Positions 5,832-6,360 of a DNA stretch of 64,000 nt are shown here, one piece after another (position 1 is the first letter of the stretch; each line of letters starts with the position of its first letter). The translations under genes and the position numbers were made by a program. The notes beneath the pieces were generated by a model. It had not been told where the DNA came from, searched no databases, and saw only the letters and a list, made by a program, of their open reading frames with translations. This stretch comes from Escherichia coli (GTDB lineage: Bacteria; Pseudomonadota; Gammaproteobacteria; Enterobacterales; Enterobacteriaceae), in assembly GCF_003334335.1 (NCBI RefSeq), contig NZ_QOWQ01000013.1; one strand, given 5' to 3'.

Positions 5832-6360
5832 ATGCCGGATACGGCCTACGGTTCGGCACAGACTTGTAGGCATGATAAGACGCGACAAGCGTCGCATCAG
5901 GCATTGTGCGCCAACTGCCGGATGCGGCGTGAACGCCTTATCCGGCCTACGGTTCGGCACAGACTTGTAGGCATGATAAGACGCGTCAAGCGTCGCATCA
6001 GGCATTGTGCGCCGACTGCCGGATGCGGCGTGAACGCCTTATCCGGCCTACGGTTCGGCACAGACTTGTAGGCATGATAAGACGCGACAAGCGTCGCATC
6101 AGGCATTGTGCGCCAACTGCCGGATGCGGCGTAAACGCCTTATCCGGCCTACGGTTCGGCACAGATTTGTAGGCATGATAAGACGCGTCAAGCGTCGCAT
6201 CAGGCATTGTGTGCCGACTGCCGGATGCGGCGCTGACGCGCCTTATCCGGCCTACGGTTCGGCACAGACCTCCAGGCATGATAAGACGCGTCAAGCGTCG
6301 CATCAGGCATTGTGCGCCAACTGCCGGATGCGGCGTAAACGCCTTATCCGGCCTACGGCA
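5832..6360. repeat. Tandem array of about five REP/BIME units (about 100-bp period)
   Basis: Recurrence of gccggatgcggcgtgaacgccttatccggcctacggttcggcacagacttgtaggcatgataagacgcg(a/t)caagcgtcgcatcaggcattgtgcgcc at about 5915, 6017, 6119, 6219, 6323; track ORFs inside are repeat artefacts. Confidence 0.85.

Follow-up and report, generated by a model that had tools for sequence, protein, structure and literature searches.

A five-unit tandem array of REP palindromes between yjjW and yjjV of Escherichia coli: a probable BIME-2 and a strain-variable allele of REP352

Introduction

Between the convergent genes yjjW and yjjV of Escherichia coli, repetitive extragenic palindromic (REP) sequences are arranged as a tandem array that fills the intergenic spacer. 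We describe this array in a stretch of 64,000 nucleotides (nt) from contig NZ_QOWQ01000013.1 (RefSeq assembly GCF_003334335.1), the whole of which is referred to here as the window. The array is very probably a bacterial interspersed mosaic element of the BIME-2 class and the window's allele of the REP352a-h region of K-12; it grew by local duplication and would have changed in length by recombination or slippage, and knowledge of the family suggests a role for it as a hairpin barrier and as a site for DNA gyrase. The array is real but ordinary, in that the element is already known and catalogued, as REP352 in K-12. The literature on REP and BIME-2 arrays goes back decades, and variation between strains in the copy number of BIME-2 loci has been published.

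Structure of the array

Tandem Repeats Finder reported a single array at 5842-6358, with a period of 101, 5.1 copies, 94 % matches, no indels, and a score of 932, and a repeat search identified a higher-order register of 202 nt at 96 % identity. The true limits of the array are 5833-6356, within 1-4 nt of the span (5832-6360) given to it in a first-pass annotation of the window. That annotation described about five units of roughly 100 bp, each of paired REPs, and the description holds: when split in register, the array consists of five head-to-tail units of 101, 101, 101, 103, and 101 nt, each with one Y-type and one inverted Z2-type REP, and the periodicity marks them as related copies rather than unrelated sequences. 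Each unit is composed of a 15-nt tail-to-tail linker (GGTTCGGCACAGACT), an inverted 39-nt Z2 REP (TGTAGGCATGATAAGACGCGnCAAGCGTCGCATCAGGCA), a 12-nt head-to-head linker (TTGTGCGCCAAC), and a 35-nt Y REP (TGCCGGATGCGGCGTGAACGCCTTATCCGGCCTAC), in that order. The REP tail CGGCCTAC bounds the units at 5842, 5943, 6044, 6145, 6248, and 6349. The Y-REP head GCCGGATGCGGCG has five matches, on the plus strand, and the Z2 head GCCTGATGCGACGC has five, on the minus strand; shuffles of the window give expectations of 0.19 and 0.09 matches, respectively, for the whole 64 kb. The two kinds of head alternate strictly. A CRISPR-like organization was considered and rejected, as the units are contiguous and without unique spacers.

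The array is entered from the left by yjjW (4967-5830, plus strand), which encodes a YjjW-family glycyl-radical enzyme activase, carries the name yjjW in all matching E. coli records, and is transcribed towards the repeats. Its stop codon, TGA at 5828-5830, is followed by CA, and 2 nt past the stop the array opens with a 17-nt remnant of a Y REP, TGCCGGATACGGCCTAC (5833-5849, plus strand), which keeps the head and tail of the palindrome and has lost the central 18 nt. This remnant was defined against the intact Y of a 33-bp allele (strain Ecol_545) and of E. albertii, and it is also found in other Escherichia species. The units follow on the plus strand. Unit 1 (5850-5950) comprises a linker at 5850-5864, the inverted Z2 at 5865-5903, a second linker at 5904-5915, and the Y at 5916-5950. 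The inverted Z2 and the Y lie at 5966-6004 and 6017-6051 in unit 2 (5951-6051), at 6067-6105 and 6118-6152 in unit 3 (6052-6152), at 6168-6206 and 6219-6255 in unit 4 (6153-6255, 103 nt), and at 6271-6309 and 6322-6356 in unit 5 (6256-6356). On the right, the last 4 nt of the terminal Y overlap yjjV (6353-7132, minus strand), a gene for a TatD-like metal-dependent hydrolase of 259 amino acids (aa) that ends in FNVP before the stop. The array therefore contains 10 full REPs in addition to the left Y remnant and fills the spacer between two convergent genes, as had been proposed; yjjW and yjjV are convergent in every complete E. coli genome searched.

Two units depart from the common pattern. 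The Y of unit 4 carries a 2-nt insertion at its apex (GGCGCTGACGCGCC), which keeps the palindrome and can lengthen it. The conserved GTAG/CTAC foot is present on 9 of the 10 REPs and has been lost from the Z2 of unit 5, where the foot reads CTCCAGG in place of TGTAGG (6271-6277). Of the other alleles compared, ET201 alone has the unit 4 insertion and the GTAG-less Z2 of unit 5.

Assignment to BIME-2 and comparison with known elements

BIME-2 elements are made of y and z2 REPs in tandem copies with short linkers, and their copy number varies between strains; by definition, the heads of neighboring REPs are joined by a short S linker and their tails by an s, l, or r motif (PMC3333891). BIME-1 elements are single-copy pairs of y and z1 with a long L linker, which often has a site for integration host factor (IHF) (PMC3333891). 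The array is assigned to BIME-2 because its Y and Z2 match those of the REP325 element of K-12, its units match Rfam family RF02564 (naRNA4), and it has no IHF consensus. All five units match RF02564, a Y-linker-Z2 covariance model built on REP325, from end to end, with 63.9-78.9 bits against a gathering score of 59.5, and the family matches best on the yjjV-sense strand. The minus-strand matches lie at 5869-5947 in unit 1 (76.7 bits), 5970-6048 in unit 2 (76.7 bits), 6071-6149 in unit 3 (78.9 bits), and 6275-6353 in unit 5 (78.8 bits); unit 4 is matched at 6172-6252, with 66.7 bits on the plus strand and 63.9 bits on the minus strand.

Of the known elements, REP352a-h of K-12 is shared in locus, flanks, unit (linkers, Y, and Z2), left remnant, and the overlap of the last Y with the yjjV stop. 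This locus is recorded as REP352a-h in EcoCyc, where it overlaps yjjV by 2 nt (bioRxiv 10.1101/2024.07.17.603846). K-12 has four units, a 419-bp spacer, and 8 REPs, whereas the window has five units, 522 bp, and 10 REPs. The K-12 allele also differs from that of the window with respect to the 2-nt insertion in unit 4 and the Z2 without GTAG in unit 5, and the variable sites are combined differently. REP352, like REP325, is among eight multi-REP regions that were protected from exonuclease in a stress-dependent manner in a study of the mobilome (bioRxiv 10.1101/2024.07.17.603846).

The likeness to REP325 (naRNA1-6), which lies between yjdM and yjdN in K-12 and consists of six Y-linker-Z2 repeats (Qian et al., PMC4550694), extends to the alternation of Y and Z2, the match to RF02564, and the period (100, with 5.8 copies, compared with 101 here). 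The Y of REP325 is identical to the Y of window units 3 and 5, and its Z2 is one substitution and one loop base away from the Z2 of the window. However, the linkers are different (GTCGGCACCGTT and GGAGGGTGCGGGAATTT in REP325, TTGTGCGCCAAC and GGTTCGGCACAGACT in the window array), and REP325 has its six units between co-oriented genes, whereas the window array lies between convergent ones. For REP325, RNA products and binding of HU have been demonstrated experimentally.

Two further types of element share some of these features. BIME-1 (RIB/RIP) elements also have inverted REP palindromes at the 3' ends of transcription units, but they are single-copy, use Z1, and carry the IHF site in L, whereas the window array is tandem, of Z2 type, and has linkers of 12 and 15 nt, which places it outside BIME-1, RIB, and RIP. 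The IHF consensus WATCAANNNNTTR was absent from both strands of the array even when one mismatch was allowed, and the binding of IHF suggested in the first-pass annotation is thus not borne out, the site being one that belongs to the L linker of BIME-1. The array also resembles the REPINs of systems with REP-associated tyrosine transposases (RAYTs), in which REP doublets are mobilized by TnpA_REP. The likeness is in the doublets of about 100 bp, made of inverted REPs, and in the conserved GTAG/CTAC foot. The doublets of REPINs are, however, described as dispersed, whereas in the window they form a tandem amplification at a single site.

Copy number across E. coli

The number of units was compared in two samples spread systematically over 5,426 complete E. 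coli genomes, which gave 118 usable chromosomes. The first used the locus itself as the query (59 chromosomes) and the second used only the two flanks (60 chromosomes), so that the repeats could not interfere. Array length ranged from 0 to 6 units, in agreement with the strain-variable copy number that had been expected. No unit was present in five chromosomes (two in the first sample and three in the second), one unit in 25 (13 and 12), two units in 22 (12 and 10), three in eight (5 and 3), four in 20 (10 and 10), five in 35 (16 and 19), and six in three (1 and 2); in one further chromosome, from the second sample, the flanks were split. For alleles with the yjjV end described below as haplotype B, the count includes a last unit with a truncated Y. 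Five units is the commonest allele, in about 30 % of the sampled chromosomes, a rough figure given that clinical clones are over-represented in RefSeq, and therefore the window allele is not an outlier.

Splitting representative alleles in register gave a ladder of spacer lengths, in which the steps are whole units. It begins with 33 bp, which is a single intact Y REP (Ecol_545), and continues with 112 bp for one unit (CUVET24-IPD24), 213 bp for two (O157:H7), 314 bp for three (strain 300490 and Survcare253), 419 bp for four (K-12), 516 bp or 522 bp for five (ST131, and the window strain and ET201, respectively), and 617 bp for six (PEC240). The records labelled K-12 in the samples all have four units and those labelled O157:H7 have two; unit number is therefore stable within lineages, and this is not a fast-switching locus. 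The description of the array as unusually long is accurate when set against a typical REP locus, REP352 being one of the eight multi-REP regions mentioned above. It does not hold within the locus, where five units is the most frequent allele and both six-unit E. coli alleles and an Escherichia allele of about 11 units exist, or in comparison with the six units of REP325 in K-12.

Arrays of this type had also been proposed as targets for insertion sequences (IS), and the genome with split flanks provides an example. In strain IAI39 (NC_011750.1), IS1397, a REP-specific member of the IS3 family, lies between yjjW and yjjV at locus positions 6001-7552, and the array is a single unit. The junctions (...GCCGGATGCGGCGTGAA, then IS1397, then TAAACGCCTTGTCCGGCCTAC) place the insertion in the loop of a Y REP; the published target of IS1397 is the central loop of REPs within BIMEs. 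IAI39 was the one sampled genome of this kind, and disruption of the array is rare, since the flanks were unjoined in just 26 of 5,424 records in the flanks-only search. IS disruption was also suspected in two records in which the search alignment broke inside the array, and was rejected, as these are simple alleles of six and three units. In IAI39, yjjI is annotated as frameshifted.

Origin and growth of the array

One scan with YjjW of species-representative genomes returned 51 loci. No REP is present in Enterobacter, Kosakonia, Phytobacter, Yokenella, Superficieibacter, and some Citrobacter, where yjjW and yjjV end at abutting or overlapping stop codons (0-6 bp). Two REPs are present at the junction in Salmonella enterica subsp. 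arizonae, and every Escherichia species sampled has the same type of unit and the same linkers as the window array. The number of units among these is one with a full Y in E. albertii, two in E1V33, and four in E. whittamii, and Escherichia sp. MOD1-EC7003 has a spacer of 1,117 bp with a period of 100, 10.9 copies, and about 22 REPs (locus positions 3229-4347), in which a higher-order period of 201 nt was also detected. Citrobacter portucalensis A60 and C. youngae ATCC 29220 have five-unit arrays with an 84-bp unit at the same junction (locus positions 2544-3011 and 3364-3846), and in other Citrobacter species 0-164 bp separate yjjW from yjjV.

The Citrobacter arrays resemble that of the window in their location at the yjjW/yjjV junction and in having five tandem units of two inverted REPs, with 466-481 bp in total. 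However, they are built from other REP types (a GTAGGCCGGATAAGGCGCAGCCGCCATCCGGC type and a short GCCTGATGCGCTTCGCTTATCAGGCCTAC type), with other linkers and another period than in Escherichia, and they are an independent amplification. As judged from these comparisons of sequence, the junction is ancestrally empty, REPs colonised it in the Escherichia, Salmonella, and Citrobacter group, and amplification in place occurred at least twice independently; this account is based on the relatives with abutting stops and on the different units of Escherichia and Citrobacter.

Several other loci were noted in the course of the scan. In Kluyvera, Pseudocitrobacter, and their relatives, the gap between yjjW and yjjV is about 1.42 kb (1.68 kb in one), presumably with an extra gene. 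A contig labelled Chryseobacterium sp. 18061 has an enterobacterial yjjW-yjjV locus with the 1.42-kb spacer of the Kluyvera type, and is probably contaminated or mislabelled. The species representative SCPM-O-B-8794, named as E. coli, has 91.6-93.0 % identity to the window at this locus, which is below that of Escherichia sp. E1V33.

Within Escherichia, the units share their two linkers, and nearly all carry a mismatch in the Z2 stem, GCATG for GCCTG (C-to-A). Because the linkers and this mismatch are specific to the locus and common to its units, they argue for growth of the array by local duplication of one founder unit, rather than by independent insertions. Four segments of the unit are variable (both linkers and both loops) and occur in many combinations among units and strains, as expected of repeated unequal exchange or conversion between units. 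Changes in length would arise by unequal homologous recombination, or by replication slippage, between the 101-bp direct repeats. The 0-unit allele could have been generated if the TGCCGGAT head of the left remnant recombined with that of the last Y. The transposase TnpA_REP is a possible helper in changes of length; BIMEs are recombined by TnpA_REP in vitro (PMC3333891).

Hairpin structure and conservation

The palindromes of the array have the potential to form very stable structures. When folded computationally as RNA, the 522-nt spacer has an energy of -290 kcal/mol on the plus strand (z = -12.8) and -279 kcal/mol on the minus strand (z = -12.4). Since Y and the inverted Z2 can pair with each other, folding of a unit into a single long hairpin is also possible, with a computed energy of -44 kcal/mol compared with a sum of -36.5 kcal/mol for two separate hairpins.

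The stems are more conserved than the remainder of the unit. Among 28 full E. coli units, none of the 46 stem columns is variable, compared with 12 of 55 others (Fisher p = 4e-4), and among 31 distinct units from five Escherichia species the counts are 6 of 46 and 37 of 58 (p = 1e-7), statistics in which the units of an array are not independent samples. Minor-allele cells in the 31 Escherichia units number 6 in the stems and 122 in the other columns, and pairing is kept in 709 of 713 pair cells. No compensatory double changes were found in the hairpin stems of these 31 units, so that the pattern is one of conservation and not of covariation.

Possible functions

The stacked hairpins would stand where the yjjI-yjjW and yjjU-yjjV operons converge and share their 3' ends. 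By analogy with other members of the family, they most likely form a 3'-end barrier to exonucleases and to read-through, and so would protect both mRNAs. Convergent transcription piles positive supercoils between operons, as described by the twin-domain model. Where these supercoils meet, the array most likely provides a strong site for DNA gyrase or a topological insulator, a proposal that likewise draws on the behavior of the family. Gyrase cleavage is enriched in BIME-2, with a preference for y REPs and independently of transcription (PMC6379681), and the borders of supercoiling domains carry BIME-2 elements (PMC10592627). No intrinsic terminators or promoters were found in the spacer; a few terminator-like matches lie in coding regions and are no commoner than in shuffles.

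Several observations weigh against parts of this explanation. The accessible part of the gyrase-cleavage paper (PMC6379681) names neither yjjV nor yjjW. Alleles with a single REP occur in about 4 % of the sampled genomes, some relatives are free of REPs, and the operons work without the array; any function of the array is thus dispensable or quantitative, and unit number is not tightly selected. The conservation of the stems may reflect recognition of sequence or homogenization of units, and not selection for structure. RAREFAN did not place REP352, unlike the other seven large REP regions, in the set associated with a RAYT (bioRxiv 10.1101/2024.07.17.603846), which weakens the part proposed for TnpA_REP in changes of length.

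Some of the same observations fit a reading in which the array has no function for the host and is purely selfish or neutral, a non-autonomous element of REPIN-like kind that was amplified in place, and its variation in length is drift. This overlaps with the explanation favored here in terms of origin and differs only on function; we regard it as possible, though somewhat unlikely. It is consistent with the presence or absence of the array and its 0-6-unit polymorphism within E. coli, with the REP-free abutting stops in Enterobacter, Kosakonia, Phytobacter, Yokenella, and some Citrobacter, and with a unit number that looks stable in lineages (four in K-12, two in O157:H7) and not tuned. However, drift fits less well with stems that are far better conserved than loops and linkers in five Escherichia species, although recognition by a transposase or gene conversion could explain that, or with the fact that two Citrobacter species independently built five-unit arrays of 84 bp at the same junction. 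Furthermore, to be a strong gyrase site and an insulator is a general property of the BIME-2 class.

The 3' end of yjjV and the flanking genes

The terminal REP has a close relationship with the end of yjjV. The UAG stop of yjjV is complementary to 6353-6355 and so coincides with the final three bases of the GTAG foot in the terminal Y. In haplotype A, found in the window, K-12, ET201, and Ecol_545, the protein has 259 aa with the FNVP end, and the foot of an intact Y provides the stop. In haplotype B, found in ST131, O157, and ST866, the protein has 260 aa and ends in VSG or VRG, the stop precedes a truncated Y by 10 nt, and about 40 nt separate it from the first full hairpin. It follows from these two 3' haplotypes that REP rearrangement rewrote the C-terminus of YjjV.

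Where a REP lies less than 16 nt from a stop codon, ribosomes reportedly stall and translation is reduced (Liang et al. 2015, as summarized in PMC12306157). Thus the REP that touches the yjjV stop could be a translational brake, in which a stable hairpin at most 15 nt away holds up ribosomes at termination and reduces the output of the gene upstream. The geometry is favorable, since on the yjjV mRNA the stem of the Y begins 0 nt past the UAG and the stop is itself part of the GTAG foot. A brake of this kind nevertheless concerns only the terminal REP and not the array, and the arrangement with the stop in the foot is not conserved, haplotype B being common; as an account of the element it is unlikely. 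If the rule for stop-proximal REPs applies here, haplotypes A and B would differ in their output of YjjV.

Divergence between strains peaks in the gene ends that touch the array (window 5250-5830 and 6356-6750). Identity to K-12 is 99.5 % in yjjI, 96.8-97.4 % in yjjW, 95.2 % in the 3' half of yjjV, and 98.9 % in yjjU. Over the 2 kb of flanks, identity to any complete E. coli genome is at most 98.0 %, although the adjoining prfC-osmY region (8300-12300) matches many strains at 99.9 %. Which relative is closest depends on the side, with K-12 on the left and ET201 on the right, and on this sequence comparison the window at this point is a mosaic of E. coli haplotypes. Import of the yjjW/yjjV flanks from another Escherichia species was considered and rejected, as in every segment E. 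coli strains are nearer to the window than are E1V33, E. whittamii, E. albertii, and MOD1-EC7003.

Two further features of the window lie away from the array. At a distance of 8 kb there is one gene for tRNA-Leu(CAG) at 14245-14331, compared with three in tandem at the equivalent position of K-12 MG1655 (leuQ, leuP, and leuV), a further case in which tandem copy number differs. The SymR antitoxin RNA is matched at 46120-46196 on the minus strand (Rfam RF01809, 94 bits), which implies a symE/symR type I toxin-antitoxin locus.

Other interpretations

Another proposal is that the junction of the yjjI-yjjW and yjjU-yjjV operons is a selected and not a passive site for REP amplification, at which the array acts as a tunable gyrase sink, a transcriptional buffer, or a source of naRNA4-like RNAs that bind HU. 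The empty ancestor, the independent amplifications in Escherichia and Citrobacter, the intact stems, and the raised diversity of the abutting gene ends are the grounds for suggesting it, and we give it a low probability. If it is true, unit number would modulate local supercoiling, convergent read-through, and the output of YjjV.

We also consider it improbable that the units are genes for naRNA4-like nucleoid-associated small RNAs of about 77 nt, which with HU would bridge DNA cruciforms and condense the nucleoid as for REP325. All five units exceed the RF02564 threshold over the full model, the architecture of REP325 is alike (period 100, 5.8 copies), and both REP352 and REP325 are among the eight exonuclease-protected REP regions. 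It has also been suggested that other REP325-like DNA may do the same job, with structure mattering over sequence (Qian et al., PMC4550694). On the other hand, no promoter-like site was found in or near the array, and alleles with zero units exist. RF02564 also scores a lone Y/Z2 pair at window 14023-14105 with 73 bits, and the naRNA4 model therefore recognizes generic BIME-2 sequence rather than a specific RNA gene; it will flag every Y/Z2 pair, and such matches should not be read as RNA genes. The lone pair belongs to a small second BIME (Y, inverted Z2, Y, with GTCGGATGCGGCG variant heads), which is located at 13964-14105, between rsmC and tRNA-Leu.

Open reading frames (ORFs) of 55-186 aa cross the array on both strands, and the idea that they encode real proteins can be dismissed with near certainty: a period of 101 nt is not divisible by three and shifts the reading frame from unit to unit, the ORFs overlap one another on both strands and yjjV, they are not annotated in any RefSeq record compared, and they vanish in short alleles. 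They are artefacts on these grounds, as the first-pass annotation had already taken them to be, and should not be annotated as genes.

Implications

Assemblies and alignments that cross this spacer differ in steps of 101 bp, which makes it a potential typing marker and also a trap for short-read assembly. With an empty junction in some relatives, arrays in two genera, and a range from 0 to 11 units, the locus offers a natural series for testing what a BIME-2 does between convergent operons.

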